DNA of 64,000 bases from an uncultured bacterium (GCA_963801165.1 CAWDDT010000007.1:64001-128000); one strand, 5' to 3'; counted from the first letter of the stretch, positions 2,816 through 39,134 are shown. Made by a program: numbers and translations. Notes: generated by a model from the letters alone, not told the origin.

Positions 2816-4381
2816 ATGGACCATGAGCTAGTTCTCGAGATGCAGGGCGTGTCTCGCCAGTTCGGGGCGGTGCGAGCGCTGACGAACGTCAGCTTCGAGT
2901 GCCGCGCCGGTGAGATACATGCGCTGGTTGGTGAGAACGGCTCGGGGAAATCGACGCTCCTCGGGGTTGCTTCAGGATTCGTAGACCCCGACCTGGGCAC
3001 GGTGTCGATCGGGGGCAACCGGCTGCGGCGGGACTCTCCCGCCATGGCCCGCAAGCTCGGTCTGGCGATGGCCTATCAGGACGGCTCGTCCGTCCACGCC
3101 GAGCCGGTCAAGAACAACTTGTATTACGCCGCGCGTCCGGCCCAGCGGCCGCCGTACTGGCGCAGGAAGAAGTGGGCGCGCCGGGTGCTGGCGGAGTTTG
3201 ACCTGGACCTCGAGCTCTTCCCCGACGCGCCTGCCGGTTTCTTGACGCTGGCCGAGCGCCAGCTCTTCGAGGTAGCGAAGGCACTCGTGACCCATCCCAG
3301 GGTGCTGCTCCTCGACGAGCCGACGACGGCCCTTGGACCCGATGAGGTCGAGGCCCTGCACCGCACCGTGGTCGCCTGCCGGGACCGGGGTGTCGGTGTG
3401 GTGTATGTCAGCCACCGGCTGCCCGAGGTGCTCGAGGTCGCAGACCGGGTGACCGTCCTCCGCGACGGGACGCATCAGGGGACGTTCGACGCCAGGACGA
3501 CGAGCGAATCGGAGCTCGTGGAGCGAATCGTCGGGCGTCCTTTCGATGCGGCCTTCCCACCCCCGGCAACGTCACCGGACGATGGCGAGGAAGTGTTCGT
3601 CGTCGACGCCCTGCAAGGGCAGTCGTTCGGCCCGGTCAGCTTTACGCTGCGCCGGGGCGAGATAGTGGGGATCGCCGGCGCCGAAGGCAACGGCCAGCCG
3701 CAGCTCTTCGACTGTCTCGCCGGTCGGGTTCCTCCCCGTACCGGGCGCGTTGTATGCGACGGCAAGGAGCTGACGCTCATCTCTACCCACGAAGCGGTCG
3801 GTGCGGGGGTCATGCTGCTGCCGGGAAATCGCAAGCAGGAGGCCCTGATGGGAGTCCTCGGGGTGAAGGCGAACATCACGATCCAGTCACTAAAGAAGTT
3901 CTCACGGTTCGGCCTGCTGCGAAGGCGGGCGGAGCGGGTCGCGGTCAAACGGCTCGTGGATGAGATGGAGATCAGAACCCCGTCGCTCGACCAGCCGGTC
4001 GAGTTTCTCTCCGGCGGCAACCAGCAGAAGGTGTCGGTGGCCCGCTCGTTCCTCAGAGAGCCTGCGGTGATCCTGGCTTACGAGCCGACCCAGGGGGTCG
4101 ACGTTGGATCGCGCTTCGATATCTACAAGGCGCTGCGAGCCCGGGGGGACGCCGGGGCCGCCCTGCTCGTCAAGTCCAGCGACCCGATCGAGCTCTCGGG
4201 GCTGTGCAACCGCGTTCTGGTCATGTCACGGGGCACAATCATCGAGGAGATTCCCGGCGACGAGCTCGATGAGGTGCGCATTGTCGAGGCGATCGTGCGC
4301 GGTCCGGGAATGTCGAAGGCGGCCCGGTCGCCGCTGGGCGTTGCCATGCCCAAGGCCCCGATCCGCAAAGAGGCATCATGA
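2816..4381 (+). CDS. Sugar ABC transporter ATP-binding protein (RbsA-like, two NBDs)
   Basis: GENGSGKS Walker A, LLLDEPT, VSHRL, LSGGNQQK in second NBD; GGAGGAG RBS. Confidence 0.95.
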   Translation: MDHELVLEMQGVSRQFGAVRALTNVSFECRAGEIHALVGENGSGKSTLLGVASGFVDPDLGTVSIGGNRLRRDSPAMARKLGLAMAYQDGSSVHAEPVKNNLYYAARPAQRPPYWRRKKWARRVLAEFDLDLELFPDAPAGFLTLAERQLFEVAKALVTHPRVLLLDEPTTALGPDEVEALHRTVVACRDRGVGVVYVSHRLPEVLEVADRVTVLRDGTHQGTFDARTTSESELVERIVGRPFDAAFPPPATSPDDGEEVFVVDALQGQSFGPVSFTLRRGEIVGIAGAEGNGQPQLFDCLAGRVPPRTGRVVCDGKELTLISTHEAVGAGVMLLPGNRKQEALMGVLGVKANITIQSLKKFSRFGLLRRRAERVAVKRLVDEMEIRTPSLDQPVEFLSGGNQQKVSVARSFLREPAVILAYEPTQGVDVGSRFDIYKALRARGDAGAALLVKSSDPIELSGLCNRVLVMSRGTIIEEIPGDELDEVRIVEAIVRGPGMSKAARSPLGVAMPKAPIRKEAS

Positions 4382-6846
4382 CCGCCGAGATGCGAGCCAC
4401 CGGCATCGACCGGATACGTCAGCTCGGCCGCAAGCTGGTGCGCAACGCCCGTGACAAGAACAAGTGGCGCAAAGTAGTCAAGGTCCGGCTCTGGATGCCG
4501 GTCGTGCTCCAGATCTTGTTGATCATGGCCCTCCTCTGGTACACCAGCACCCGCTTCAACGGGTTCATCAATCAGGCGAACATCCTCAACATCCTGCTGC
4601 TGGCAATGCCGCTCTCCCTGGCCGCGATCGCCCAGACCCATGCGATTCTGGTCGGATACCTCGACCTGTCGGTCGGTGCGATGATCAGCTTCGGGGTCGT
4701 TGCCGGCTCCTTCCTCATGGGCGCCGACGCGTCGGCAGGCCAGATCGCTCTCGCGATCCCGGTCATCCTCGGCTGCGGTGTCGGTCTCGGTCTGGTCAAC
4801 GCCGGTCTGATTCGTGGGTTCAGGATCCCGTCGTTGATTGCAACTCTCGCCACGTTGAGCATTCTCGACGGGATCTCGCTGACGCTGCGACCTTCCGCAC
4901 AAGGGGTCATCAGCGGCGACCTGGTTTCCGTTCTCACCAAGCGCATTGGACCGATCCCCATCGCCTTCGTCGTCATCGTCGTCGGTGCCGTGCTTCTCGA
5001 CGTTTGGCTGCATGCCTCGGGGTCCGGGCTTGCGGTGCGGGCGGTCGGATTCGACGAGCGGGCGGCCAAGCGGGGCGGGATACCCACAAACTGGATTCGG
5101 GTGCGGGCGCTGATTCTCTCCAGCCTGCTGGCGGCCGTCGCTGCGTTCTTCGTGATGGCTAGATCGCCGATCGGTAATCCCCAGATCGGCTCTCCCTTCG
5201 CGTTGAACAGCATCACCGCAGCCGTTCTCGGCGGTGCATCGCTGGCGGGAGGCCGGGCGACATTCGTCGGCAGTACGGTCGCCTCCATTTTGCTCGCCTT
5301 GATCATCTCTGTGCTGCCGTTCCTGGGCCTGTCTCCGGACGACGGCTCGATGATCATCGGTCTGCTCGTGCTGATCGGGATCGTGCTCTTCCAGGTCGGG
5401 GATCTCAAAGAGTTGGTCAAGCGCAACTTCAGGCGAGCCCGCCGGCTTGTTCTCGGCAGCGGGGTCGTCGACAAGACGGAGATCCCGGCGTTCTACCCGC
5501 AGGGGACAGACTTCGCGGTTGTCCCCACCGGCCGGAAGTTGATCAAGAACGGCATCATCTTGACTCTGGATCAGACCATTGGAGATCTCCTCCCCGGGGA
5601 TGTCCTCATCGAGGATGACCGAATCGTCCGGGTGGCCCCGGAGATCGCCGTCGATGGCGCCGAGGTCATCGATGCCACCGGGATGATCGTGATGCCGGGC
5701 TTCATCGATACTCATCGCCACATCTGGGAGGGTCTGCTGCGCAACCTCGGCACCGATGTTCCGCTGGAGGGGAGGACGAGCTACATATCGTTCGTTCTCC
5801 ACAAGCTGGCGCCTGCCTTCCGTCCGGAGGACGCCTATGTGGGCGACCTCGTGTCGGCTCTCGGTGCTATCGATGCCGGGGTCACGACGTTGCTCGACTG
5901 GTCGCACATCCAGGGGTCACCGGCTCACACCGATGCAGTCGTCCAGGCGTTGAACGACTCCGGGATGCGTGCCGTCTTCGCCTATGGCTTTCCTTGGTGG
6001 GGCAAGTGGGAGGAGCGCCAGCCGAGCTGGTTCGTCCGCGCCGCCACCGAGCACTTCTCGACGCAGGACCAGAAGCTGTCGCTCGCCCTGGCGGCTCCCG
6101 GTCCCGAGTTCACGGACTTCGAAGTATCCCGGGACCATTGGAAACTGGCGAGAGAGACAGGCGCCAGGATCACCACCCACGTCGGGGTGGGCAGCTACGG
6201 ACTGGACTCAAAGGTGCAGGAGATGGGCGAAGCCGGCTTGCTCGGTCCCGACACGACTTACATCCACTGCACGACCCTCAACGACACCGAGATCCAGATG
6301 ATCGTCGATACCGGGGGGACCGTCTCGCTTGCTTCGCCGGTGGAGATGATGATGGGTCATGGCATGCCGCCGATCCAGAAGTTCCTCGATCGCGGCCTTC
6401 ATCCCAGCCTCAGCGTCGATGTCGAGACAAACGTGCCCTCCGACATGTTCAATCAGATGCGCTCGGTGCTCGGTTTGCAGAGGAACCTGGCCGCGGCGAG
6501 CGGGCGGGATCCGATCTCGGCCCGCGACGTGCTGTCCTACGCGACCATCGAGGGCGCCCGGGCCACCGGGCTCGATGCCAAGGTGGGAACCCTGACGCCG
6601 GGCAAGAAGGCCGACCTCATCCTGTTGCGGACCGACCGGATGAACGTCACTCCGCTCAACGACCCGGTGACCTCAGTTGTGCTCGGCATGGACACGGGCA
6701 ACGTCGACACCGTGATCATCGACGGCAGGATCATGAAACGCAGCGGGAAGCTGCTGCACGTCAACTGGCCGGCGCTGCGACGCCAGATCGACGAGTCACG
6801 AGATCATGTGATCGCCAAGTCGGGTTTCCGTCTCCCGAAGATCTGA
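4378..6846 (+). CDS. Fusion: RbsC-like ABC permease (N-term, about 340 aa) + metal-dependent amidohydrolase (C-term, about 440 aa)
   Basis: GYLDLSVG and AAVLGGASLAGG permease motifs, then in the same frame without a stop KLIKNGIILTLD, PGFIDTHRH (HxH), YIHCT, SVD, GTLTPGKKADL. Confidence 0.88.
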   Translation: MTAEMRATGIDRIRQLGRKLVRNARDKNKWRKVVKVRLWMPVVLQILLIMALLWYTSTRFNGFINQANILNILLLAMPLSLAAIAQTHAILVGYLDLSVGAMISFGVVAGSFLMGADASAGQIALAIPVILGCGVGLGLVNAGLIRGFRIPSLIATLATLSILDGISLTLRPSAQGVISGDLVSVLTKRIGPIPIAFVVIVVGAVLLDVWLHASGSGLAVRAVGFDERAAKRGGIPTNWIRVRALILSSLLAAVAAFFVMARSPIGNPQIGSPFALNSITAAVLGGASLAGGRATFVGSTVASILLALIISVLPFLGLSPDDGSMIIGLLVLIGIVLFQVGDLKELVKRNFRRARRLVLGSGVVDKTEIPAFYPQGTDFAVVPTGRKLIKNGIILTLDQTIGDLLPGDVLIEDDRIVRVAPEIAVDGAEVIDATGMIVMPGFIDTHRHIWEGLLRNLGTDVPLEGRTSYISFVLHKLAPAFRPEDAYVGDLVSALGAIDAGVTTLLDWSHIQGSPAHTDAVVQALNDSGMRAVFAYGFPWWGKWEERQPSWFVRAATEHFSTQDQKLSLALAAPGPEFTDFEVSRDHWKLARETGARITTHVGVGSYGLDSKVQEMGEAGLLGPDTTYIHCTTLNDTEIQMIVDTGGTVSLASPVEMMMGHGMPPIQKFLDRGLHPSLSVDVETNVPSDMFNQMRSVLGLQRNLAAASGRDPISARDVLSYATIEGARATGLDAKVGTLTPGKKADLILLRTDRMNVTPLNDPVTSVVLGMDTGNVDTVIIDGRIMKRSGKLLHVNWPALRRQIDESRDHVIAKSGFRLPKI

Positions 6847-6853
6847 GCTCGCC

Positions 6854-8035
6854 TTACGGTATCTCCCCGGCGAACTGGATCATCCCCCACTCACCATCGG
6901 TCAGCCACGTGGGGTCGGTGGCCAGGGCGTCCCGCGCCACCGCGGGGGCGACGCCGGCCGCAACCAGGGACTTGGCCGCACGCACCGCCAGCAGCGGCTG
7001 GAGCGGACGCACGATCTTCTCGAATGGTGTCGTCGGGTCCCAATGGAGGTCGCCGAGCAGCCTCCTGTAGTTGGCGTCACCCTTGACGATGACCAGGTCG
7101 GCCTCCGCCAGGTAGTCGACGAGGTCGGGTGGGCACTCCCAGAAAGGCAGAGGGGACACCCAGAAAGGATGCGTCGTGACAACTAGAGACCCGTTGCCCC
7201 GGCTCTTGGTGAGGATCCCGGCAACCTCGGACGCCGGTGCCGGCTCGGTGGCGAGACGGGCAATCGTCGCTTCGAAATCGGGGAGTGTCACATCCGATAC
7301 GAACGTCGGGTGCGGTTTGAGGTGGATGGTCACCCGGCCGCCGCGGCCGAGGACATGTGCCGTAACCATGAGGTCGGCAACCAGCTCGGCGCCGGCATTG
7401 TCGAGAATCAGGTGCACGGAGTTGGAACCTTCGCCGAGCAGCTCGACGGCGCGATCTGTGTCGTCCGCCAGGAGCCGTTCCGAGCGGTTCAATCCGAGGA
7501 TGTCGGCTGTCCGAGCCGCCGCTTCGCGCTCACCGGCCGGCCACAGGCTGAGATCCACGCGGTTGGCCCACAGTGAAGCTGCGAGCAAGATCGGAAGCTC
7601 GTCGACCACATGCCCGAGCCGCCCGCCGAGGGGAACGGCGCCATCGAGCCCGATCGCCTTCTGAGCGGTGAACGGGTCGACACCCTCACGGTCGCCCGGC
7701 TGCGAGTACCCCGTTGCTGCCAGCAGCCGCCGGTAGAAGTACGTCTCGGCGAAGAACCACGGGATGTCGCGCCAGGTCATACCCAAATACGGTGCGACGT
7801 ACTCCTTCCAGGCGGCGGCGTCGGAGAGGAGCGGCTCGTCGATCTCTGCGACGACGCCCTCGTGTATCTCGGCCACGAGCGCTTCGACGAGGCTGGTCCG
7901 TGTGGCGTCGAGCTCGTTCTCGGCGAGGGTCCGGCGTGCGATGTCGGGGAGCCTGCGCATGACGGACTCTTCAGTGAACGTACCGATCTCGTTGGCTCGA
8001 AGCGAAGCTGGTCGCGGGTGCTTTGGTGGGATCAT
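6854..8035 (-). CDS. Damage-control phosphatase ARMT1/DUF89 family
   Basis: PWFFAETYFYRR, SLWANRVDLS, LDNAGAEL, FVSD, KGDANYRRL motifs; start at ATG 8035 inferred. Confidence 0.88.
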   Translation of the reverse strand: MIPPKHPRPASLRANEIGTFTEESVMRRLPDIARRTLAENELDATRTSLVEALVAEIHEGVVAEIDEPLLSDAAAWKEYVAPYLGMTWRDIPWFFAETYFYRRLLAATGYSQPGDREGVDPFTAQKAIGLDGAVPLGGRLGHVVDELPILLAASLWANRVDLSLWPAGEREAAARTADILGLNRSERLLADDTDRAVELLGEGSNSVHLILDNAGAELVADLMVTAHVLGRGGRVTIHLKPHPTFVSDVTLPDFEATIARLATEPAPASEVAGILTKSRGNGSLVVTTHPFWVSPLPFWECPPDLVDYLAEADLVIVKGDANYRRLLGDLHWDPTTPFEKIVRPLQPLLAVRAAKSLVAAGVAPAVARDALATDPTWLTDGEWGMIQFAGEIP

Positions 8036-8154
8036 CGGCTTTCTCTTGGTCTTTGAGGGGCTGAACGATAACGCCACGAGAAGGGGCCACCTCCGCGGCT
8101 GGCCAGTCTCACGTCGGTAAGATGCCGCTCCGCGGTACGGGGACAGATGGCCAT

Positions 8155-9009
8155 ATGCCAACCGAGAACACCGAGGTCATTGCCCTCGAGAAGGTGTCGG
8201 TGGTCCGTGATGGCCACTACCTGCTGCGGGCCGTCGATTGGTGTGTCGCTCGTCATGAGCGCTGGGTCGTGCTCGGGCCAAACGGTGCAGGCAAGACAAC
8301 CATGCTCCAGGTGGCCTCGACGTACCTCGGCCCAACCCACGGCACGGTCCGGTTGCTCGGCAACGTGTACGGCAGAGTGGACGCACGAGCCCTCCGGGAG
8401 CGAATCGGCTATGCAGGGGCAGGTCCCGCAGGGCTCGTCAGGCCGGACCTGCGCACTCTCGATGTCGTTGTGACCGGTCGCCACGCATCGTTTGTTCCGA
8501 CCCGCTTTCACACCTACACAGATGACGACTGGCGCACCGCCCGGAACAACCTGGGTCGGCTCGCCGCAGGCCACCTCACCGACCGCCGATTCGGAACGCT
8601 GTCGTCGGGCGAGCGGCAGCGGGTGTTGATCGCCAGGAGCTTGATGACCCGGCCTGAGGTGCTGTTTCTCGACGAGGCCATGACCGGGCTGGACCTCGGG
8701 GCACGGGAGAGGCTGGTGGGCTCGCTTGCGGACCTGGCCGCCGACCCGGTCAGCCCCGCCGTGGTGTTGGTGACCCATCACGTCGAGGAGATCCCGCCGG
8801 GTTTCGGATACGTCTTGCTGATGAGAAACGGCAGCGTGGTCGTGTCGGGGCCGGTCGACGATGTGCTCACGGCAGACAGTCTGAGCGAGTGTTTCGAGCA
8901 GCCATTGCTCGTTGAGCGTCGCGATCGCCGCTACCACGCCTGGTCGAAGAATCGGCCGCAGGTGGTAGAGCCACCCGCGGCCGACGGAGGGGGACCCTCT
9001 TACTCGTGA
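8155..9009 (+). CDS. Stand-alone ABC ATP-binding protein (ModF-like)
   Basis: GPNGAGKT, LSSGERQR, LFLDE, VTHHVEEIPPG. Confidence 0.88.
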   Translation: MPTENTEVIALEKVSVVRDGHYLLRAVDWCVARHERWVVLGPNGAGKTTMLQVASTYLGPTHGTVRLLGNVYGRVDARALRERIGYAGAGPAGLVRPDLRTLDVVVTGRHASFVPTRFHTYTDDDWRTARNNLGRLAAGHLTDRRFGTLSSGERQRVLIARSLMTRPEVLFLDEAMTGLDLGARERLVGSLADLAADPVSPAVVLVTHHVEEIPPGFGYVLLMRNGSVVVSGPVDDVLTADSLSECFEQPLLVERRDRRYHAWSKNRPQVVEPPAADGGGPSYS

Positions 9010-9950
9010 GCCTTCACATGGTCTCTGATCACATCGGCCACGTGCGCCGGTGCCAGCCCGTACTTTTCGAGCAGTGCCTCATCCGGGCCCGACTCGCCGA
9101 AGATGTCGGAGATGCCGTGGATCTTCATCGGCAGTGGTGATTGCTGGGATAGCGTCTCAGCGATGGCACCGCCGAGGCCACCCACGACGGTGCCTTCCTC
9201 GGTTGTGACGACGAGACCGGTTCTCTGGGCGGCGGCAACGATCTCACCCACGTCCAGGGGTTTGATCGTCGGGACGTGTACCAGGTGCACGTCGATGCCT
9301 TCGTCGGCGAGGATCTCGGCGGCAGTGAGCGCCCGGGCCGTGTGCGTCCCCGTTGAGAACACGGTGACGTCCGAGCCCTCACGCATCGTTACGGTCTTGC
9401 CGATCACGAACTCGTAGTCGTCCGGAAGGATGATCGGGCTGTTGGGGCGGGTGAGCCTGTAGTAGATGGGGCCGTCGTACTCGAGGCCGGCGTTGATGGC
9501 CGCCCTCGTCTCGATCTCGTCGCCCGGGGCGATAACGGTCATGTACGCCATCGCCCGCATGATCGAAACATCGTCGAACAGGAGGTGGGTCTTGCCCGTG
9601 CTGCCGGCAAGCAGACCGGCGTAGCCGGCCATGATCTTGACGTTGGCCTTGGGCTGGGCGATGAGGACCCTGATGGCGTCGTGGGCTCGAGAGACCACGA
9701 AGGCCGAGAAGGTGCTCACGATCGGGATGAGCCCGACGGTGGCCATGCCGGCTGCCATACCGAACATGTTCATCTCGGCGATGCCAACCTGGAAGAAGCG
9801 GTCGCGGTGCGCCGCCTCGAAGATATCGGTGCGGGTCGAGCTCCCGGTGTCCCCGTCGAGAACGACGATGCGGTCGTTGGTGTTGGCGGCCTCGCTGATT
9901 GTCTCGCCCATTGTGACCCGGAGCGACTTGCCCATCGTGCGCGTTGTCAT
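9000..9950 (-). CDS. Split transketolase, C-terminal subunit (pyrimidine-binding + C-terminal domains)
   Basis: GIAEMNMFGMAAGMA, IKPLD, GGLGGAIAE, FGESG; ATG overlaps the stop of the upstream subunit. Confidence 0.92.
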   Translation of the reverse strand: MTTRTMGKSLRVTMGETISEAANTNDRIVVLDGDTGSSTRTDIFEAAHRDRFFQVGIAEMNMFGMAAGMATVGLIPIVSTFSAFVVSRAHDAIRVLIAQPKANVKIMAGYAGLLAGSTGKTHLLFDDVSIMRAMAYMTVIAPGDEIETRAAINAGLEYDGPIYYRLTRPNSPIILPDDYEFVIGKTVTMREGSDVTVFSTGTHTARALTAAEILADEGIDVHLVHVPTIKPLDVGEIVAAAQRTGLVVTTEEGTVVGGLGGAIAETLSQQSPLPMKIHGISDIFGESGPDEALLEKYGLAPAHVADVIRDHVKAHE

Positions 9951-10816
9951 GCCGCACCTCCTTCGGGTTCGCCGAGTTCTTTCATCGCCGCCGCCATTTG
10001 CTCGTCGCTTGGCACCTTGCTGTGCCATTCCGGCCGGTTCTCCATGAAGGAGACGCCCTTGCCCTTGACGGTGTGGGCGATGATGGCCACAGGCTCTCCG
10101 GTGACCGCCTTGGCCTCCTCGAGGGCCGCGAGGATCGCCGGGACGTCGTGCCCGTCGATCTCGATGACATTCCAGTCGAAGGCCCGCCACCGGTCGGCCA
10201 ACTGGTCGCCCAGATAGGGGCTGATCCGCTCGTCGAGTGTCTCACCCGTCCAGCCGAACTGCTGGAGCTTGTTGTGGTCGACGAGGGCGACGATGTTGTC
10301 GAGACCGTATCGAGCGGCCACGTGGGCACCTTCCCAGACGACGCCTTCGTTGCATTCCCCGTCGCCGAGCATGACGTACGTCGTGAAGTCCTTGTGCGCT
10401 GCCCGGGCGCCCAGCGCGATACCGAGCGAGCCGGCAAAGCCGAGCCCGAGCGACCCCGATGACATGTCGACGCCGGGGGTCACCGTCTGATCCGGATGCC
10501 CTTGGAGGCGGGAGTTCACCGCATCGAATGTCTTCAGCTCATCGACCGGGAAATAGCCGCGGAGGGCGAGCGTCGAGTAGAGGGCAATCGAGCTGTGCCC
10601 CTTCGACAAGACGAAGCGGTCCCGATCGGGATCCGCCGGATTCTCGGGATCCACATTCATCACACCGAAATACAGTGTGGCCAGCATGTCCGCCGCCGAC
10701 AGTGGGCCGCCGACATGGCCCGCACCGGCATGGCGCACGGCCTTGAGGATCTCTACCCGGATCTGGCGGGCGTATTCCGCCAGCTCAGCCGGGGTATAGG
10801 TCAGCGTTTGGGTCAT
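9947..10816 (-). CDS. Split transketolase, N-terminal (ThDP-binding) subunit
   Basis: GHVGGPLS, DRFVLSKGH, LQGHP, GDGECNEG ThDP motif, TVKGKG; GGAGGAG RBS. Confidence 0.93.
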   Translation of the reverse strand: MTQTLTYTPAELAEYARQIRVEILKAVRHAGAGHVGGPLSAADMLATLYFGVMNVDPENPADPDRDRFVLSKGHSSIALYSTLALRGYFPVDELKTFDAVNSRLQGHPDQTVTPGVDMSSGSLGLGFAGSLGIALGARAAHKDFTTYVMLGDGECNEGVVWEGAHVAARYGLDNIVALVDHNKLQQFGWTGETLDERISPYLGDQLADRWRAFDWNVIEIDGHDVPAILAALEEAKAVTGEPVAIIAHTVKGKGVSFMENRPEWHSKVPSDEQMAAAMKELGEPEGGAA

Positions 10817-10856
10817 TGACGGTCTCCTCCAGATTGGTTGGTGTCGCGGGCTCCGG

Positions 10857-12107
10857 TCACTTCTGGTTCCTCCCGGCGGCCCTCTCCATGGCTTCCAGCA
10901 TCGGTAGCGACTGGCCGCTCAAGAAGCGTACGAGCGCGCCGCCGCCGGTGCTGACGAAATCGATAGCGTCGAGATCGACGAATCGCCGTGCGCTGGCAAC
11001 AGTGTCGCCACCGCCGATGACGGACTTCCCCGAAGCGCGGGCGACCGCTTCCCAGAGGTGCCGGGTCCCGTAGTCGCCGGCCACCGACTCGTAGACCCCG
11101 GCGGGCCCGTTCACGAAGATCGTTGCGGCCGCCGCGATGAGTTGCTCGTAGCGGGCGACTGTTTCCGAGCCGATATCGATGAGTTGCTCGCCGATGGGCA
11201 GATCGGCCACGGCGACCTCGCGGCGGCTTCCGTCTGCACCCGCATACGCAACGTCCACGGGCACGTGGATGCGATCCGCGTAAAGGCCCAGCCACTCCGC
11301 GGCCCTGGGCAGGAAGCCGTCGAGTGATCTATCGGTGATGAACTTCTTCGACGGCTCACCGAGGTCGGCGCCGCCCGCCCACAGGAACACGTTTGCGGTT
11401 ACCCCCGAGGTGATGATGTCGTCGGCCGTGCCGTCCTGGAGCACCTTGCCCATCATGGCAAACGCATCGGAGATCTTGAGACCGCCCAGCACGAAGAGAC
11501 AGGGCCGCGCCGGATTCTCGGCGACGCTCGATAACGTGTTCACCTCGTCCATGAGCAGCCTGCCCCCGGCCGAGGGAAGGACCTCCTGGAAGCCGACGAG
11601 CGATGGCGCATTGCGATGTGCCGCAGCGAAGGCGTCGTTTACATACAGGTCCATTAGAGGCGCCAGGTGTCGGACCAGATAGGTCCTGGTCATTTCCTCA
11701 GGTGTCAGCTTCACCGCGTTCTCGAAAGTCGAGACCTCCTCGGTGAGAATCCGGATGTTCTCGAGCAACAGGATCTGGCCGTCCTCGAGGTCGGCAATGG
11801 CCTTGCGGGCGGCCGGGCCGGCGACGTCGTCAATGAACTTGACTTCTCTGCCAAGCTTGGCGGTGAGCTTGGTCGCGTGCTCTGCGAGCGACACGAGGTT
11901 GTGGTAGTCGAGCGTGTCGCCCTGATGGGCGATGATCACCAACCGTGCCCCGGCGTCCGCCAGGTCCGTGATCGTCGGCAGGCTCTTGTCCAGACGGTTC
12001 TCGTCGGCGATCTTGCCTGTCTCGCGATCGATCGGAGAGTTGATGTCGGGGCGCAACAGGACGGTGCGCCCCCGCAGCTCCATGTCATCGAGTGATCTGA
12101 TGTCCAT
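10857..12107 (-). CDS. Phosphoglycerate kinase family protein (archaeal-like, atypical substrate site)
   Basis: RPDINSP, LLENIR, YVNDAFAAAHR, NGPAGVYE, IGGGDT, VSTGGGA; true start inferred at ATG 12107 (MDIRSLDD). Confidence 0.88.
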   Translation of the reverse strand: MDIRSLDDMELRGRTVLLRPDINSPIDRETGKIADENRLDKSLPTITDLADAGARLVIIAHQGDTLDYHNLVSLAEHATKLTAKLGREVKFIDDVAGPAARKAIADLEDGQILLLENIRILTEEVSTFENAVKLTPEEMTRTYLVRHLAPLMDLYVNDAFAAAHRNAPSLVGFQEVLPSAGGRLLMDEVNTLSSVAENPARPCLFVLGGLKISDAFAMMGKVLQDGTADDIITSGVTANVFLWAGGADLGEPSKKFITDRSLDGFLPRAAEWLGLYADRIHVPVDVAYAGADGSRREVAVADLPIGEQLIDIGSETVARYEQLIAAAATIFVNGPAGVYESVAGDYGTRHLWEAVARASGKSVIGGGDTVASARRFVDLDAIDFVSTGGGALVRFLSGQSLPMLEAMERAAGRNQK

Positions 12108-12121
12108 GGCAATCCGTTTCC

Positions 12122-13213
12122 CTAGGAGGACGCCCGCATGGCGGCGACGACGGCGGCACCCATCTCGTTGGTGGATGCGGATCCACCCATGTCCTTGGTC
12201 TTGACCTCTCCGGCGCGGAGCGTGGCGATGATCGCGTTCTGGATATGGGCGCCCGCCTCGTCCTCCCCGAGGATCTCGAGCATCATCCTGACCGCCTCGA
12301 TGGAGGCAATCGGGTTGACCACCTTCTTCCCCGTGTACTTCGGGGCCGAGCCGTGGATCGGCTCGAACATCGACGGGTAGTCGCCTTCGGGGTTGACGTT
12401 GCCACCGGCGGCGAATCCCATCCCGCCCTGGAGCATCGACCCGAGGTCGGTGATGATGTCGCCAAACAGGTTGGAGGCCACGATGACGTCGAAAAACTCC
12501 GGGTTCTTGACGAACCACATGGTGAGGGCGTCGACCAGCGCCTTGTCGGTCTCGATGTCGGGGAAATCAGCGGCCACGTAGTCGTATGCCTCATCCCAGA
12601 AGACCATCGAGTAGTTGAGAGCGTTCGACTTGGTGCAGTTGGTCACACGCCCGACCGGGTTGGTCGAGCCGAGCTTCTTGCGCTTGCGTGCCTGGTCGAA
12701 GCCGTAGCGGATCGCCCGCTCGCATCCCTTCCAGGTGAAGATGCCGGTCTGCAGGGCAAATGCGTCCGGTGTGCCCCGCTTGAAGAAGCCGCCGGTGCCC
12801 GAGTACTCGCCCTCGGTGTTCTCCCGGATCACCAGCATGTCGACGGTCTCCGGGGTGGCCGTCGAGATCGGGGAGGAGACACCCGGGTACAGCTTGATCG
12901 GGCGCAGGTTGACGTACTGGTCGAACCCTTTGCGAATGGCGAGCAGCATTGTGAGCGAGACGTCGTCCGGGATCTTGTTGGCGTCGCCGACGCAACCGAG
13001 GAAGATCGAATCGAAGGCGGCGAGGGTCTCGAGGGCGTTATCCGGCATCATGGCGCCCTTTTCGAGGTAGCGGTCGCAGGACCAGTCGAACAACTCGGTG
13101 CTCACCTCGAAACCGTGAATCTCGGCGGCCGCTCCGAGGACACGGACGGCTTCTTCGGTGATCTCGCCGCCTACGCCGTCTCCGGGAATGAGGGCGATTC
13201 GATAGGACGTCAT
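12122..13213 (-). CDS. Isopropylmalate/tartrate dehydrogenase family (beta-decarboxylating dehydrogenase)
   Basis: IPGDGVG, YVNLRP, RENTEGEY, NLFGDIITD, FEPIHGSAP; AAGGAGA RBS. Confidence 0.92.
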   Translation of the reverse strand: MTSYRIALIPGDGVGGEITEEAVRVLGAAAEIHGFEVSTELFDWSCDRYLEKGAMMPDNALETLAAFDSIFLGCVGDANKIPDDVSLTMLLAIRKGFDQYVNLRPIKLYPGVSSPISTATPETVDMLVIRENTEGEYSGTGGFFKRGTPDAFALQTGIFTWKGCERAIRYGFDQARKRKKLGSTNPVGRVTNCTKSNALNYSMVFWDEAYDYVAADFPDIETDKALVDALTMWFVKNPEFFDVIVASNLFGDIITDLGSMLQGGMGFAAGGNVNPEGDYPSMFEPIHGSAPKYTGKKVVNPIASIEAVRMMLEILGEDEAGAHIQNAIIATLRAGEVKTKDMGGSASTNEMGAAVVAAMRASS

Positions 13214-13223
13214 GGTGTCTCCT

Positions 13224-13235
13224 TGGAACGTTCCA
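13224..13235. promoter_or_regulatory. Perfect 12-bp palindrome TGGAACGTTCCA, candidate LacI-family operator
   Basis: Self-complementary with central CG, located between the predicted -10 and the RBS of the dehydrogenase operon. Confidence 0.7.
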
Positions 13236-13244
13236 CTTCGATCA

Positions 13245-13274
13245 AACTTAGCCTTTTTGGGTACCGAGTGTCAA
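13245..13274 (-). promoter_or_regulatory. Sigma70-type promoter for the dehydrogenase-PGK-transketolase operon
   Basis: TTGACA-N18-TAAGTT on the minus strand. Confidence 0.6.
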
Positions 13275-13402
13275 TGCTCGGCGTGCAGCCGTTCGATCTG
13301 CATTCCGGACATGAGCGACATTACACGCATGTAAGGGCAATGTGACAAACAGTTTACAAAGCCTCGCGCCGACTGAGTCGGCGAATTCCCATCAGGAACC
13401 TT

Positions 13403-13898: not shown

Positions 13899-16800
13899 CT
13901 AGCGAAGTCGTTCGCATGCGGTCAGTGTGTCGTCGCCGCCGGCCGCTCTGCACCGATCCCTGTTGCCGTCACCTCCATTGAAGCTGTCGGCACCCGAGCC
14001 GTCGACAAGGAGATCGTTGGCGGCCCCTCCGAACATGGTGTCGTTGCCGGTACCGCCCTCGAGCTTGTCGCTGCCGACATCGCCGAGGAGCACGTCATCA
14101 CCGGCGCCACCGCCGATGTTGTCGTTCCCTGCGCCACCAAAGAGAATGTCATTCCCGCTCCGCCCATCAATGTTGTCGTTGCCGCCGGCGCCGAAAATTC
14201 GGTTGTCGCCGCCGTCTCCGCGGATCGTGTCATTCCTGTCGCTGCCGAAGACGTTCTCGAAGTCGACAAGGATGTCTCTTCCCCATCCTCCGGCCAAATG
14301 CGCGGCCAGGTCAACCGTTACGCCCTTTGGCGATCCTGCGAAGCTGACACGATCTCCCGGTTCGGGTATCGGGCCGCCGCTCTGCGGGTTGTCGTCGCCA
14401 CCGAACAGCATGTCGTCGCCGCCGCGGCCGTTGATGACGTCGTTCCCTGCTGCTCCGTAGATTCGGTTGTTGTGGTCATCCCCGGAGATGTCATCGCCGT
14501 AATCCGTGCCGAATACGTTCTCGAATCCGGTGACCGTGTCTGAACCCCACCCAGAGGCCATGCCGGCCTCGAGGTCGACGGACACACCCAGCGGCCCTCC
14601 TGCGAAAGTCAGGCGATCCCCTGGTTCGGGAATGGGGCCGTCGATCAGCGATGTCTGGTTGCCCCCATCGAGGCGGTCGTCGCCGCCACGGCCGTTGATC
14701 ACGTCATTTCCGTCGTTGCCCCTGATGACGTTCGCGGCCTGGTCGCCTTGGAGGCGGTCACCGAAGGCCGACCCTTCGAGGTTCTCGATCCCGGTTAGCT
14801 GGTCAAGCCCCTCACCCGTCCCGATCCCTTCGACCAGATCAACGCTGACCGCAGCCACCGAATTCGAGTAGTCGGCGGTGTCGACGCCGGGGCCACTGTC
14901 GGGTCCGCCGTCGCCGTCGAGAATGTCGTCGCCCGGGCCACCAATCAGCGTGTCGTCACCTGCTCCCCCAAGGATGATGTCGTTGCCACCCCCGCCGTAG
15001 ATGATGTCGTTGCCTCCAAGACCGCAGATCACTTCGGAGTCTTCTGTTCCCATGAGGCCCAGGTCGTCTCCCGGGGTACCCCGGATGTCACATATGTCGG
15101 AGCTCACCTGGATGGTGTCAGCGCCACAGCCGCCATCGTCGTCGCACACCTCAACCGTCACGGTGGCGGAAACGCCGCTGTCGTAGCCAGTCGAGAGGGT
15201 GGCTTCGACGGAGGAGCCGGAGATCGGCGCCGACTGCCAACCGTTGCCGTCGCCCCAATCGACCTGTGCAGTGTGAGTGTCGTTGGCGCCTGGATCATCA
15301 AAGGAAGCGGTGACTGTAACCGGATCTCCCGGCGGTACCGTCTGGTCCTCGCCGGCGTTCACCGTCGGTGTCACGTTCCCAATCGCGAGTTCGGCGGTTG
15401 CCGACACCACCACACCGGACTCCGTTGCCGTCAGCGTTATGAGATAGGTGCCATCGTCGGTACACGTGATGGTCGTCTCGGAGGCGGCGGCGTCAGTAAA
15501 CACGCAGGTCGCTCCAGGGTCGACGTTGTTGGTGGCGGCGTATGACCAGGCCTTGGCCGGGGTGCCATCCGGATCGGTAGCCGATCCCGCGACCGTCACC
15601 GGGGCACCTTCAGATCCGGAGTACGGACCGCCGGCGTCGACAATCGGCGGGTCGTCGACGCCCCCGACTGTGATCGAGACCGATGCGGAGTCGGTGAATC
15701 CCGTTCCGTCAGCGATCGTGTACTCGAACGAGTCGGCACCGGCGAAGTTGGGGGCCGGAACGTAGTGAATGGTGCTATCAGGATTGACGGTGGCAGTGCC
15801 ATGCTGCGGCGCCGTCACCTCAATGATTGACAACGAGTCCCCGTTCGGGTCTGAGTCGTTGGCGAGGACGTCGATGTCCACCTCACCGTCCTCGCCCACG
15901 GATGCCATGTCGTCTGCTGCCTCGGGAGGCATCGCCGCCTCCGTCACGGTCACCGTCACGTCGGCCGTGTCGCATAACGAGGTTGTGTCACATATCGAGT
16001 AGGTGAAAGTGTCGAATCCCACAAAGCCAGCGGCCGGCGTGTATACGACCGTTCCATCGCCTCCGGGTGAGCTCGAGCCGTTTGCCGGCGCCAACTCGAT
16101 CACAACCGAAGCCAGATCGAGGTTGCCGTCGGGGTCTGTGTCGTTGGAGGCCACATCAATCACCACCGACGTGTCCTGGGTCGTAGTGGCTGCGTCGTCG
16201 ATGGCCACCGGTGCTTCCGGACCGAGAACCGTGATATCCACCGTCGCCGGGTCCGACGTTCGGACACCGTCAGACACGGTGAAGGAGAATGAATCGGCGA
16301 CCGTCCCGACTTGGGGCGTGTAGTCGACCGTGGCCGTGCAGCCCGTTGCGGTGCAGTCGGGCGCAGATATCGCCGAGAGGGCACCGCCCGTGGGTGAGGC
16401 AGAGACGGCGAATGTCAGAGGATCGCCATCCGGGTCGGATCCGGACAGCGAGATCGGAGTCGCCACGCCGGCGGTGACGCTGATCGACGACGGAGAAGCG
16501 GCAGGGCTCTGGTCGAGTTGGCCGACCCCAACTACGTAGACCGGAGTGGCGGACCATTCGTTCTGCCCAATCGGCTCCGGCCCATCGCCGAGCTCCCCGG
16601 ATCCGTCCCCGCCCCAGCACACCAGCGACCAGTCACCGAGCACGGCGCAAGCATGTGACTCTCCCACCGAGATCGCCCTGACCCCGGTCAGCGCGTCGCC
16701 GGATTCGTCCGGTGCGACCACCGTCTGTGGGGTTGGCTGATCACCCGTTGCCCCATCGTCACCTGTTCCCAACCGGCCGTTATTCATTTGACCCCAGCAC

Positions 16801-17807
16801 CGGACCTCGCCGACGGCCAGGAGAGCGCAAGTGTGTAGCCTCCCTGCGCCGATGGAGACGGCGGCTGCCAGGGACTCCACCTTCTGTGGCGTGGCGTGGG
16901 GAAGTCCGGGAGGACTGCCGAGCTGTCCAGAACTATTCGCTCCCCAGCAGTACACGTCCCCGTCCTCGGTTACCACGCACGTGTGGCTTTGGACCTTGGC
17001 CGTCGAGATGCCCGCTGCTTTCACGTCGGGGGGCAACGCCACTTGTTGAGGGCTGGCGCTTGGACCACCAGCCGCGCCGTTACCCAACTGGCCGTCGAAG
17101 TCGGCGCCCCAGCACCATGTGCTTCCGTCGTCGAGGATGACACAGGTGTCCAACCAGCCAGCTGCGATCGCAACGGCACCGGAGAGCTCAGTCCCACTTT
17201 GATAGAGAACCGGGACGGGAATCGATCGATTGGTCGTGGAACCGTCGCCGAGCTGTCCGTAGGCGTTTGCACCCCAGCAGCGGATCGTGCCGCCTGCCAT
17301 GAGGGCGCAGCCGTGGTCCGCTCCCACCGCAATCTGTGCGATCCCGCTCAGCGGCGTGCCTGTTTCATCCGCTACGACATCAGTCGGGAACGGAGCGTCT
17401 ACGAACTCGCCCGTTCCCAGCTGACCCTTATCGCCGGCACCCCAACACTCGGCCCTGCCCGTGGCGAGTAACGAGCAACCGAAATCGCTGCCCGCAGCGA
17501 CCGCGACTGCACCGCCGATTGGCGTTCCGTTGCTGTCAACGATCCGCTGTGCGATGTCGCTCTGCGATGGGTTCTGAAGCGACGTCATCGCTCCCCAGCA
17601 CCATACGTCCGTGTCGCCGTCCACAACACACGAGTTGAAGGTGCCCATGCTCATGCGCCCGTGAATACCAGCCAAAGCAGCGCTCTGACCGGAGTCGGCC
17701 AACGACGCGGGTGCGGCCGATCCGAGTTGTAGCGCCGTCGCTACCAACATCGTTACCAAGAACACTGTACGCCGACGCGGCACACCTCTGCGGTTTGTTC
17801 CCTGCAT
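13899..17807 (-). CDS. Large secreted multidomain protein: RCC1/BLIP-II repeats, Ig/cadherin-like repeats, PKD-like domains, RTX-type Ca-binding repeats
   Basis: Signal peptide; CWGxNxxGQLG repeats; DVLANDSDPNGD / DSFEYTIAD; VDWGDG; GGxGNDxL nonapeptides; GGGAGG RBS before ATG 17807. Confidence 0.88.
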   Translation of the reverse strand: MQGTNRRGVPRRRTVFLVTMLVATALQLGSAAPASLADSGQSAALAGIHGRMSMGTFNSCVVDGDTDVWCWGAMTSLQNPSQSDIAQRIVDSNGTPIGGAVAVAAGSDFGCSLLATGRAECWGAGDKGQLGTGEFVDAPFPTDVVADETGTPLSGIAQIAVGADHGCALMAGGTIRCWGANAYGQLGDGSTTNRSIPVPVLYQSGTELSGAVAIAAGWLDTCVILDDGSTWCWGADFDGQLGNGAAGGPSASPQQVALPPDVKAAGISTAKVQSHTCVVTEDGDVYCWGANSSGQLGSPPGLPHATPQKVESLAAAVSIGAGRLHTCALLAVGEVRCWGQMNNGRLGTGDDGATGDQPTPQTVVAPDESGDALTGVRAISVGESHACAVLGDWSLVCWGGDGSGELGDGPEPIGQNEWSATPVYVVGVGQLDQSPAASPSSISVTAGVATPISLSGSDPDGDPLTFAVSASPTGGALSAISAPDCTATGCTATVDYTPQVGTVADSFSFTVSDGVRTSDPATVDITVLGPEAPVAIDDAATTTQDTSVVIDVASNDTDPDGNLDLASVVIELAPANGSSSPGGDGTVVYTPAAGFVGFDTFTYSICDTTSLCDTADVTVTVTEAAMPPEAADDMASVGEDGEVDIDVLANDSDPNGDSLSIIEVTAPQHGTATVNPDSTIHYVPAPNFAGADSFEYTIADGTGFTDSASVSITVGGVDDPPIVDAGGPYSGSEGAPVTVAGSATDPDGTPAKAWSYAATNNVDPGATCVFTDAAASETTITCTDDGTYLITLTATESGVVVSATAELAIGNVTPTVNAGEDQTVPPGDPVTVTASFDDPGANDTHTAQVDWGDGNGWQSAPISGSSVEATLSTGYDSGVSATVTVEVCDDDGGCGADTIQVSSDICDIRGTPGDDLGLMGTEDSEVICGLGGNDIIYGGGGNDIILGGAGDDTLIGGPGDDILDGDGGPDSGPGVDTADYSNSVAAVSVDLVEGIGTGEGLDQLTGIENLEGSAFGDRLQGDQAANVIRGNDGNDVINGRGGDDRLDGGNQTSLIDGPIPEPGDRLTFAGGPLGVSVDLEAGMASGWGSDTVTGFENVFGTDYGDDISGDDHNNRIYGAAGNDVINGRGGDDMLFGGDDNPQSGGPIPEPGDRVSFAGSPKGVTVDLAAHLAGGWGRDILVDFENVFGSDRNDTIRGDGGDNRIFGAGGNDNIDGRSGNDILFGGAGNDNIGGGAGDDVLLGDVGSDKLEGGTGNDTMFGGAANDLLVDGSGADSFNGGDGNRDRCRAAGGDDTLTACERLR

Positions 17808-17916
17808 TATCCGTCCCTCCCGATCCGCAACCGATCCTACGCAGGCATATTGTGGAATGGGCGTGATTCTCGGCCATCCCCGCATTGGCGGTGGCGACCT
17901 GTGGCACACTGGCGGC

Positions 17917-18771
17917 ATGATCGATCTCGGCGCCGAGATATCCGCCGCCCTCGACTGCGTGGTGGTGACGATGACTCCGCTCGGTGGTGGTGACGTCGCC
18001 GACAGCTATCGAGCCGTTCTCGATGATGGGCGAGCCGTCTTCGCCAAGACCAAGAGAGACGCCGCAACCGGGTTCTTCGTCACCGAGGCGGTCGGGCTCG
18101 GCTGGTTACGTGAGGCGGGCGCGGCTGCGGTTCCTGAGGTGCTTGCTGTATCGGACGACCCGCCGTTCCTGATCCTGGACTGGATCGAGCCTGGATACCC
18201 GACCGGGACGACCGAGAGCGACTTCGGCCGTGCCCTCGCCGCGTTGCACCGGGCGGGTGCGCCCTTCTTTGGGCGGGAGGATCGCCGCACTACCGGTAGC
18301 CGTGGGCTGCCAAACGATCCGGAGACCTCGTGGGCGGAGTTCTACGCAGAGCAACGCCTGGTGCCCCTGGCACGCCTGTGCCGGGACTCAGGCTCTTTGC
18401 CGAAGCGGGCGATCGCCGGGCTCGAGTCTGTAGCGAACCGCATCGACGATCTGGCGCCGCCCGAGGAGCCGCCATCCCGGCTGCACGGTGACCTCTGGGC
18501 GGGCAACCGTCTCGTCGGAGCGGGTGGAGTGAGCTGGCTCATCGACCCCGCAGCCTTCGGCGGGCATCGTGAGTTCGACCTGGCCATGATGCGTCTGTTT
18601 GGTGGTTTCGGCCGCGATTGCTTCGCCGCCTACGAGGAGACGTTCCCGCTTGCTGCGGGTTGGGAGTGGCGGATCCCGCTGCACCAGCTCGCCCCGCTGG
18701 CGGTACACGCCATCAAGTTCGGTGGCTCCTATGTTTCGGCGACCCAACATGCCCTGGATGCTTTGCGATAG
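17917..18771 (+). CDS. Fructosamine kinase family protein
   Basis: LHGDLWAGN, LIDPA, GGHREFDLAMM; CACACT-N6-ATG leaderless start. Confidence 0.92.
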   Translation: MIDLGAEISAALDCVVVTMTPLGGGDVADSYRAVLDDGRAVFAKTKRDAATGFFVTEAVGLGWLREAGAAAVPEVLAVSDDPPFLILDWIEPGYPTGTTESDFGRALAALHRAGAPFFGREDRRTTGSRGLPNDPETSWAEFYAEQRLVPLARLCRDSGSLPKRAIAGLESVANRIDDLAPPEEPPSRLHGDLWAGNRLVGAGGVSWLIDPAAFGGHREFDLAMMRLFGGFGRDCFAAYEETFPLAAGWEWRIPLHQLAPLAVHAIKFGGSYVSATQHALDALR

Positions 18772-35762: not shown

Positions 35763-35789
35763 TCAAGACGGGTTTGGTACGGCCGATAG
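35763..35789 (+). promoter_or_regulatory. Sigma28 (FliA/WhiG)-type promoter
   Basis: TCAAG-N14-GCCGATAG, ending 8 nt before ATG 35798. Confidence 0.7.
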
Positions 35790-35797
35790 GAATTCCT

Positions 35798-39106: not shown

Positions 39107-39134
39107 CGAGGAGTTACTTCCCCGAGACGGTGTG

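Follow-up and report, generated by a model that had tools for sequence, protein, structure and literature searches.

A 64,000-nt window (C7:64001-128000) of the 4.55-Mb genome of an uncultured bacterium, assembled in 13 contigs, carries an operon of four genes encoding a beta-decarboxylating dehydrogenase, a paralog of phosphoglycerate kinase (PGK) and the two subunits of a split transketolase (Table 1). We propose that this operon supplies the lower steps of an inositol-degrading branch that depends on transketolase and yields ATP. The branch would lead from 5-dehydro-2-deoxy-D-gluconate (DKG) via D-malate to pyruvate and would be co-regulated with inositol (iol) genes by a LacI-family repressor, and we put the chances of this reading at about even. 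The D-malate-forming, ATP-yielding core of the route is held with higher confidence than the full mechanism, and the use of DKG as transketolase donor in the window organism with lower confidence. In a wider reading, to which we give slightly less than an even chance, the operon would belong to an undescribed substrate-level phosphorylation on inositol, in which a split transketolase cleaves DKG and archaeal-type GAPDH and PGK paralogs proceed via D-malyl 1-phosphate to D-malate, and in which the GAPDH paralog may also serve a sulfoquinovose-like cluster via sulfolactaldehyde.

The proposed route has five steps. IolG, IolE, IolD and IolB, which are encoded elsewhere in the genome, would convert inositol to DKG, and the split transketolase would transfer C6-C5 of DKG to an aldose phosphate, freeing (R)-3-hydroxy-4-oxobutanoate (D-malate semialdehyde). 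A type II GAPDH paralog encoded on contig C5 would oxidise this aldehyde with phosphate to an acyl phosphate, the PGK paralog would hand the phosphate of the latter to ADP to give D-malate and ATP, and D-malate would finally undergo oxidative decarboxylation by the dehydrogenase, yielding pyruvate and CO2, with NADP as the probable cofactor. What we observed is which genes are present, how far they are conserved, where the operator lies and which residues are changed; the reactions of the route are all inferred.

With regard to the chemistry, derivation from the Fischer projection of D-gluconate shows that DKG, read from the keto end, is HOCH2-CO-CHOH-CHOH-CH2-COO- with the 3-OH to the left and the 4-OH to the right. 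DKG is a formally correct transketolase donor because it has a free hydroxymethyl ketone and shares the D-threo pattern with xylulose-5-phosphate and fructose-6-phosphate. What is left after removal of C6-C5 is OHC-CH(OH)-CH2-COO- in D configuration, a counterpart of glyceraldehyde-3-phosphate that bears a carboxylate where the latter has its phosphate ester. Such a substrate would suit a phosphorylating GAPDH paralog combined with a PGK paralog that is short of one phosphate-binding arginine. By the same derivation D-malate is the enantiomer expected from the stereochemistry of DKG. Its outlet would be either a D-specific decarboxylating dehydrogenase or a malate racemase together with malic enzyme, and both gene sets were seen beside the module. 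By this route the cell would gain one ATP with none invested, whereas the classical inositol route uses up one at IolC.

The operon shares a putative operator with inositol genes

The four genes are co-directional and closely spaced, as an earlier reading of the same DNA (the sequence-only reading) had described: 14 nt lie between the dehydrogenase and PGK-like genes, 40 nt between the latter and the gene for the transketolase N-subunit, and the two transketolase genes overlap by 4 nt (ATGA). Upstream of the dehydrogenase gene TTGACA, an 18-nt spacer, TAAGTT, a palindrome, AGGAG and ATG follow each other in this order. Of the TTGACA promoter previously read here the hexamer itself is present, but a consensus promoter scan called no promoter upstream of the dehydrogenase gene because the -10-like hexamer fits at only three of six positions. 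The arrangement TTGACA-18-TAnnTT plus palindrome also precedes the dehydrogenase gene in the relatives L002 and L003, and was not found upstream of that gene in L001.

The 12-bp palindrome TGGAACGTTCCA is present in seven copies in the genome, compared to 0.16 expected from base composition, and all seven are located upstream of genes (Table 1). One of them precedes a LacI-family regulator gene, and others precede iol-type genes, among which those for IolD, IolB and IolC reach or exceed their NCBIfam cut-offs. The palindrome behaves like the LacI-type operator it had been taken for, and it is likely the operator of a LacI-family repressor. The operon would by this putative operator share its regulation with iolB, iolC, iolD, the iolE-like and iolG-like genes and the LacI-family gene. 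Same-order operons in related genomes carry palindromes of different sequence upstream. The copy on C11 has an extra adjacent half-site and lies about 145 nt upstream of a hoxEFUYH-type operon for a bidirectional NAD-linked hydrogenase, which suggests that hydrogen release may be co-regulated with inositol breakdown.

A PGK paralog without the arginine of H-x-G-R

All four operon proteins are placed full-length in their Pfam families (Iso_dh, PGK, Transketolase_N, and Transket_pyr plus Transketolase_C). None of them matched an iol model of NCBIfam, and the PGK-like protein and both transketolase subunits passed no NCBIfam model. The PGK-like protein matches Pfam PGK over residues 6-399 of 416 (4e-105, 352 bits), which covers the full-length fold. 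Among solved structures the archaeal PGK 2CUN comes closest to it, matches to solved PGKs reach 4.8e-73, and it is 37% identical to the product of the genome's own pgk.

A locus scan with this protein, using one genome per species, gave 80 loci. Nine of these (L006, L031, L033, L039, L047, L048, L050, L064 and L072) were dropped from the PGK analysis for having a match of less than 380 residues or a stop in the extension. The final alignment held 73 PGK-family proteins, namely 13 archaeal and 28 bacterial PGKs and 32 members of the paralog clade. The arginine of the H-x-G-R motif, which we take to bind the 3-phosphate of 3-phosphoglycerate in canonical PGKs, is found in 13/13 archaeal and 27/28 bacterial proteins (40/41 canonical ones), but in 0/32 clade members, which have Ser (25), Asp (6) or Gly (1) at this position; the window paralog reads H-Q-G-D, with Asp64 where the arginine would be. 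It is also evident that all 32 share a six-residue insert with an invariant Phe-Glu. Six further same-order copies read HQGDT and EEVSTFE, all with Asp at the arginine position. The motifs R-x-D-x-N, E/D-N-x-R and A-H-R are retained in the clade, the window copy reading E-N-x-R. The basic patch for the 3-phosphate of 3-phosphoglycerate thus lacks its H-x-G-R arginine in the window paralog, and neither a glycolytic context (gap-pgk-tpi) nor the status of sole copy applies to it.

In a quick maximum-likelihood tree the 32 paralogs are set apart by a single branch (SH-aLRT 97), and their clade is joined to the archaeal PGKs (100), apart from the bacterial ones. The window paralog is a member of this bacterial clade, whose neighbours are the archaeal PGKs. 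We predict it to be a D-malyl-phosphate:ADP phosphotransferase, which would make rather than spend ATP because the phosphoryl group would go from the acyl phosphate to ADP.

The split transketolase has altered channel residues

The transketolase is divided over two genes, with an N-subunit matching Pfam Transketolase_N (5e-55) and a C-subunit comprising Transket_pyr and Transketolase_C. The N-subunit is 38-47% identical to N-subunits encoded beside PGK-like genes in Firmicutes iol clusters. The solved protein closest to the C-subunit is the C chain of 6YAJ, the split transketolase from Carboxydothermus (5e-78). Compared to 6YAJ and to the genome's own transketolase, the C-subunit has G-Y for T-H, S-T-G for E-D-G and H-L for H-Q, so that the canonical substrate-channel residues T-H ... 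E-D-G-x-(T/S)-H-Q are absent from it. Its translated motif is GSTGKTHL. The TGKTHL pointed out in the sequence-only reading is real and conserved, being found in 6/6 orthologs examined (five orthologs agree with the window). The iol-linked transketolases of Firmicutes alter the same three channel positions in another way (T-D ... F-N-G-G-T-H-M). The two arginines of the C-subunit that we take to be phosphate ligands are kept.

These residue changes bear on whether the operon encodes no more than a spare set of ordinary isozymes, in which PGK, transketolase and isopropylmalate dehydrogenase would all take their canonical substrates. Such an explanation agrees with the full-length matches of all four proteins to canonical Pfam families, but we give it hardly any credence, since the phosphate-binding arginine is gone from the PGK paralog, the transketolase channel is changed, the genes form a dedicated operon with a putative catabolic operator, and the PGK paralog is patchy in occurrence (7/301 sampled genomes of the same class, the window genome counted). 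Moreover, canonical copies are located elsewhere. A housekeeping gap-pgk-tpi row and a leuB-like gene lie on C6, and a dxs-like gene lies on C9. C4 adds two tkt-like matches, one of which alone aligned as an intact full-length transketolase; identity between the operon proteins and these other copies is 35-39% at best. The possibility raised earlier that the operon might hold the only pgk, tkt and leuB copies falls away, and there is support for the view that the paralogs form an operon dedicated to the catabolism of a non-standard substrate.

The dehydrogenase and the order of reactions

The dehydrogenase matches Pfam Iso_dh (1e-83). Its top NCBIfam model is the tartrate dehydrogenase TIGR02089 with 450.5 bits, 20 bits below the curated cut-off of 470.4, followed by the actinobacterial LeuB model NF002898 (391.2 bits, cut-off 393). 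The best solved relative is the tartrate dehydrogenase 3FLK of Pseudomonas putida (2.7e-97 over residues 3-356). These scores place the enzyme in the tartrate/D-malate dehydrogenase branch of the beta-decarboxylating dehydrogenases. Its translation reads HGSAPKY, where 3FLK and the locus L005 have HGSAPDI. The KY pair, which had also been noticed earlier, proved to be kept in 8/8 orthologs of this dehydrogenase group (window plus seven). We take KY to mark NADP use, as in isocitrate dehydrogenases, and G-S-A-P-D-I to be the NAD type, a motif that the window enzyme does not have. The enzyme is accordingly worded here as a predicted, NADP-preferring, decarboxylating D-malate dehydrogenase.

The sequence-only reading listed oxidative decarboxylation, phosphorylation and C2 transfer, which implies another order of reactions. 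Taken in that order, the pathway would start with decarboxylation of a hydroxy-diacid, for instance tartrate, by the dehydrogenase; the PGK-like enzyme would spend ATP on the product, and the transketolase would act last. Tartrate dehydrogenase makes D-glycerate from meso-tartrate, and the closeness of the window enzyme to this family speaks for such a start. We nevertheless regard this order as very improbable. The PGK family works on a carboxylate/acyl-phosphate pair, and the PGK paralog is usually accompanied by a phosphorylating GAPDH paralog. Genes for tartrate, threonate or apionate were present in none of the neighbourhoods examined. The context in other genomes instead indicates C2 transfer, oxidation by the GAPDH paralog, phosphoryl transfer to ADP and decarboxylation as the last reaction. 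Of the substrates suggested at that time, tartrate, threonate, apionate and glycerate have no support from the neighbourhoods, and inositol has it through the iol genes.

The GAPDH partner is encoded on another contig

It had been noted that the operon has no gap, tpi or leu genes beside it, and this is true for roughly 9 kb towards lower and 22 kb towards higher coordinates. The lack of an adjacent gap gene would, however, reflect relocation of the GAPDH partner rather than a pathway without one. The genome's sole type II GAPDH paralog is encoded on C5 (Table 1); it shares 66% identity with the Firmicutes copies and clears the cut-offs of both NCBIfam models for type II GAPDH. The GAPDH paralogs keep the catalytic cysteine motif SCNTT, and they differ from 10 archaeal GAPDHs at the invariant positions R166, H196, H224, H302 and K35. 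In a quick tree they form a separate clade, with 2CZC and 1CF2 as closest solved relatives.

Conservation of the module

The grouping of the genes is conserved elsewhere, so that the doubt expressed earlier on this point is removed. Three relatives with 80-83% identity (L001-L003) share the row of dehydrogenase, PGK paralog and transketolase genes, and the same-order genomes have it with one extra gene. In all six other genomes of the class that bear the PGK paralog, a type II ('archaeal-type') GAPDH paralog is encoded directly beside it. Four of the six also contain the dehydrogenase gene, two in the order dehydrogenase, GAPDH, PGK, two small genes, transketolase N- and C-subunit, and two as dehydrogenase-GAPDH-PGK; in the remaining two, a Gfo/Idh/MocA gene is found in the vicinity of GAPDH-PGK. 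A common upstream pathway was not found in the neighbourhoods of the same-order operons, whose neighbours are unrelated. The two small genes between the PGK paralog and transketolase genes encode a C-GCAxxG-C-C family protein and/or cupins. They are inserted in two of the three close relatives (L002:7236-8285 and L003:7239-8292) and in L105 (6565-7719) and L107 (9785-11011), and are absent from the window and L001.

A more distant set consists of 30 loci in Firmicutes, Spirochaetes and unclassified bacterial bins, many on truncated contigs, with PGK paralogs 44-55% identical to that of the window. The PGK paralog is accompanied by the GAPDH paralog at 25 of these loci, by a LarA homolog at 16, by iolB, iolD or iolE at 12, by malic enzyme at 11, by a split transketolase N-subunit at 7, by the dehydrogenase at 1 and by iolC at none. 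Five of the seven transketolase-bearing loci are iol clusters. A Pfam scan of 94 open reading frames from 13 distant loci returned IolB, IolD, IolG-type, IolE-type, DeoR and oxaloacetate decarboxylase beta proteins, among others, and no PfkB kinase or class II aldolase domain. The LarA homolog beside the PGK paralog at L018 scored 433 bits against the solved malate racemase Mar2, compared to 220 or less for lactate racemases. The LarA group to which Mar2 belongs has been linked to malic enzyme by gene context (PMC7583248).

Inositol, another feed or a sulfosugar

Several observations weigh against an inositol route. At a threshold of E 1e-100, IolD was found in 23/301 genomes of the class (one flagged unpublished), but only in three of the seven genomes bearing the PGK paralog and not in the other four. 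Among those without it is G297, a 92%-complete genome in which the operon is present in full. The DNA available for 18 of the 30 distant loci contains no iol gene, and at L007, L014 and L020 the module occurs in other gene contexts; many of the distant loci are close kin, so that their counts overstate independence. The C-subunit of the window transketolase is only 29-34% identical to the iol-linked C-subunits of Firmicutes and is closer to an ordinary split transketolase, and that DKG is the donor is itself something we infer. Furthermore, IolC and methylmalonate-semialdehyde dehydrogenase are also encoded in the window genome, and a class I aldolase of the LacD/DeoC type follows directly after iolB (229 bits, cut-off 184). 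Because of these three the classical inositol outlet is probably complete, which would leave the transketolase branch as an additional outlet. An equivalent of IolJ had at one stage been considered missing, as the genome has a single class II aldolase; this idea was rejected in view of the aldolase adjoining iolB. Finally, the GAPDH paralog lies outside the operon, and no palindrome within two mismatches was found near it.

The same lower module, from D-malate semialdehyde to pyruvate and ATP, might therefore have another feed, either a different ketose acid or a transketolase devoted to pentose-phosphate rebalancing. The dehydrogenase-GAPDH-PGK-transketolase row of G297 with no IolD detected, the differing palindromes and unrelated neighbours of the same-order operons, the occurrence of the GAPDH/PGK/LarA module also without iol genes, and the classical IolC and aldolase route in the window genome are all in line with this alternative. 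From its other contexts at L007, L014 and L020, the GAPDH/PGK module looks like a portable unit with several feeds. We nonetheless find another feed rather unlikely for the window operon, as the palindrome ties it to iol genes, the distant transketolase loci are mostly iol clusters, and DKG would, on chemical grounds, be the only ketose that gives 3-hydroxy-4-oxobutanoate on transketolase cleavage.

The position of the GAPDH paralog raises another alternative. It is set in a cluster on C5 (Table 1) whose SftI-like isomerase scores 254 bits with NF048012 (cut-off 700) and whose Ldh_2 protein has L-sulfolactate dehydrogenase as best NCBIfam match (182 bits, cut-off 500), and whose split UxaA-family pair resembles, as we presume, the sulfolactate sulfo-lyase SuyAB. 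The gene set is reminiscent of sulfoquinovose breakdown, and the GAPDH paralog would stand in for sulfolactaldehyde dehydrogenase in such a route; since the paralog is placed there it may act on sulfolactaldehyde too, or instead, which is a further point against the inositol route. If so, the GAPDH and PGK paralogs could turn sulfolactaldehyde, the sulfonate look-alike of glyceraldehyde-3-phosphate, into sulfolactate with gain of ATP, and the operon would serve sulfosugar breakdown. The location of the only type II GAPDH paralog among SftI-like, FSA/transaldolase-like, split UxaA, Ldh_2 and ABC transporter genes is what recommends this explanation. We judge it improbable, because the scores of the C5 cluster are far under the curated cut-offs, the iol-type operator is found on the window operon and not on the C5 cluster, and the dehydrogenase, LarA and malic enzyme indicate malate rather than sulfolactate. 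No sulfoquinovose isomerase, sulfolactaldehyde enzyme or exporter is encoded beside the operon in the window, and the term 'sulfolactyl phosphate' was not found in the full-text literature searched, which leaves most subscription journals outside.

Relation to known pathways

The inositol branch proposed here is best compared to classical myo-inositol catabolism, which proceeds by iolG, E, D, B, C, J and A as in Bacillus subtilis. The upper steps to DKG are common to both, and in the window genome IolD, IolB and IolC stand under the same putative operator as the operon. The classical route spends ATP (IolC) before an aldolase splits the phosphate ester to dihydroxyacetone phosphate and malonate semialdehyde, whereas in the proposed route a transketolase would act on the unphosphorylated ketose, with a gain of ATP. 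Specialised split transketolases serve apiose and sulfoquinovose routes. With the C. hydrogenoformans enzyme (6YAJ) the window transketolase has the two-gene architecture in common, but it differs in the channel residues, which are T-H, E-D-G and H-Q in 6YAJ, and in its proposed donor, a carboxylate ketose.

The archaeal-type GAPDH-PGK couple (2CUN; 2CZC and 1CF2) has the same folds, provides the closest solved relatives and presumably performs the same chemistry from aldehyde via acyl phosphate to acid and ATP. The bacterial pair differs from it by the lack of the H-x-G-R arginine and the six-residue insert in the window-type PGK, by the changes at five invariant positions in the GAPDH paralog, and by its catabolic context. 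The nearest kin of the dehydrogenase are the tartrate dehydrogenase/decarboxylase of P. putida (3FLK) and DmlA of Escherichia coli, from which family it is set apart by its sub-threshold TIGR02089 score and by KY in place of DI.

The L-carnitine pathway of Acinetobacter baumannii has been proven to run from malic semialdehyde via D-malate to pyruvate with a beta-decarboxylating dehydrogenase (PMC11353897). It has the same intermediates to pyruvate and CO2 as the route proposed here, and its last enzyme is of the same superfamily as the window dehydrogenase. In contrast, that pathway has carnitine and not a sugar acid as its source, a non-phosphorylating aldehyde dehydrogenase without ATP gain and a strictly NAD-dependent D-malate dehydrogenase, whereas the window enzyme has KY (PMC11353897). 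In Firmicutes and Spirochaetes a close homolog of the nickel-pincer malate racemase Mar2 (6D6Z; PMC7583248) occupies the place of the dehydrogenase after the PGK paralog. No racemase of the Mar2 type is encoded in the window, where the dehydrogenase would take D-malate directly, without racemase and malic enzyme.

In the literature searched we found no description of a transketolase-dependent inositol route, of natural malyl 1-phosphate, or of GAPDH and PGK paralogs acting on malic semialdehyde or sulfolactaldehyde; 'malyl phosphate' occurs there, among the matches listed and their abstracts, only for an engineered 4-phosphate pathway. PMC13524815 and PMC11770544, searched for the same purpose, gave nothing of relevance. 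If the proposal is true, it adds to a textbook pathway a new energy-conserving branch, with a net gain of ATP where the classical route spends it, and new physiological substrates to the transketolase, GAPDH and PGK families. It would also account for the scattered 'archaeal-type' gap/pgk pairs in bacterial genomes, which annotation pipelines name glycolytic, and would provide a metabolic source of D-malate in gut Firmicutes, termite-gut spirochaetes and soil or salt-marsh actinobacteria. What the window contributes is a putative operator-defined regulon tying the module to iol genes and a racemase-free version of the module, with the dehydrogenase, joined to a variant transketolase. The window genome would moreover be a natural case of a module divided over two loci.

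Table 1. Features of the operon and of other loci in the same genome. Window positions are counted from the first nucleotide of the 64,000-nt stretch; C4 to C11 are contigs of the genome.
Feature	Position	Strand	Remarks
-35-like hexamer TTGACA	window 13269-13274	minus	direct reading
-10-like hexamer TAAGTT	window 13245-13250	minus	weak; 18 nt after -35; 3/6 positions match TATAAT; presumed function
12-bp perfect palindrome TGGAACGTTCCA	window 13224-13235	strandless	candidate LacI-family operator; touches ribosome-binding site; downstream: dehydrogenase/PGK-like/transketolase operon
Beta-decarboxylating dehydrogenase gene	window 13213-12122	minus	open reading frame, 363 aa
PGK-like gene	window 12107-10857	minus	open reading frame, 416 aa
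Split transketolase N-subunit gene	window 10816-9947	minus	open reading frame, 289 aa; thiamine-diphosphate-binding
Split transketolase C-subunit gene	window 9950-9000	minus	open reading frame, 316 aa; pyrimidine-binding plus C-domain
Palindrome site	C5:395872		downstream: LacI-family regulator gene, C5:394828-395835
Palindrome site	C5:405296		downstream: 2-hydroxyacid dehydrogenase, Gfo/Idh/MocA, HpcH-type aldolase, IolD (824 bits, cut-off 715), SDR
Palindrome site	C5:399595		downstream: SDR, IolC (300.5 bits, cut-off 300), IolB (218 bits, cut-off 205), LacD/DeoC-type aldolase
Palindrome site	C4:14952		downstream: iolG-like gene
Palindrome site	C9:129809		downstream: iolE-like gene, rhizopine-type binding protein, sugar permease
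Palindrome site	C11:103507-103518		downstream: hoxEFUYH
Type II GAPDH paralog gene	C5:416092-417105		sole copy
Cluster around GAPDH paralog	C5:412393-424975		Ldh_2, split UxaA-family pair (95 aa + 393 aa), Gfo/Idh/MocA, GAPDH paralog, SftI-like isomerase, FSA/transaldolase-like, 2-hydroxyacid dehydrogenase, divergent ABC transporter
gap-pgk-tpi row	C6:422979-425911		housekeeping
leuB-like gene	C6:559266
ARMT1-like phosphatase and ABC ATPase genes	window 6854-9009		downstream of operon
RCC1/cadherin/RTX protein gene	window 13899-17918	minus	1339 aa
Permease/amidohydrolase open reading frame	window 4378-6846	plus	822 aa
Two very long open reading frames	window 35774-42605	plus	1110 and 1157 aa

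Surroundings of the operon

The operon is flanked by a convergent ABC ATPase gene, an ARMT1-like phosphatase gene, a sugar-type ABC transporter, the gene for a 1339-aa RCC1/cadherin/RTX protein and a fructosamine kinase gene. Downstream of it, the ARMT1-like damage-control phosphatase and lone ABC ATPase genes keep their position in the close relative L001. The 1339-aa protein encoded directly upstream is predicted to be secreted and comprises RCC1-like repeats, cadherin-like/Big_9 and PKD domains and RTX repeats; its gene is missing from the syntenic L001. A salt-marsh DNA contig diverges from the window sequence at 13300, and the junction between the operon and this gene therefore differs between strains.

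Half or more of the sampled sequence words are present in metagenome runs labelled salt marsh and soil, one of which is perhaps the source sample. In a salt-marsh RNA library, five contigs (151-244 nt, at least 99% alike) fall on both transketolase genes and none on the PGK-like and dehydrogenase genes, but contigs of this kind cannot show absence. Since they cannot, and DNA carry-over is possible, we draw no conclusion on expression from them.

Further from the operon, one open reading frame of 822 aa combines a BPD_transp_2 ABC permease domain (residues 68-333) with an amidohydrolase domain (437-785), and represents either a fusion or two genes joined by the open reading frame call. The region with the two very long open reading frames has a raised G+C content (0.67-0.70) and a strong positive AT skew (0.22-0.30), unlike the remaining window.

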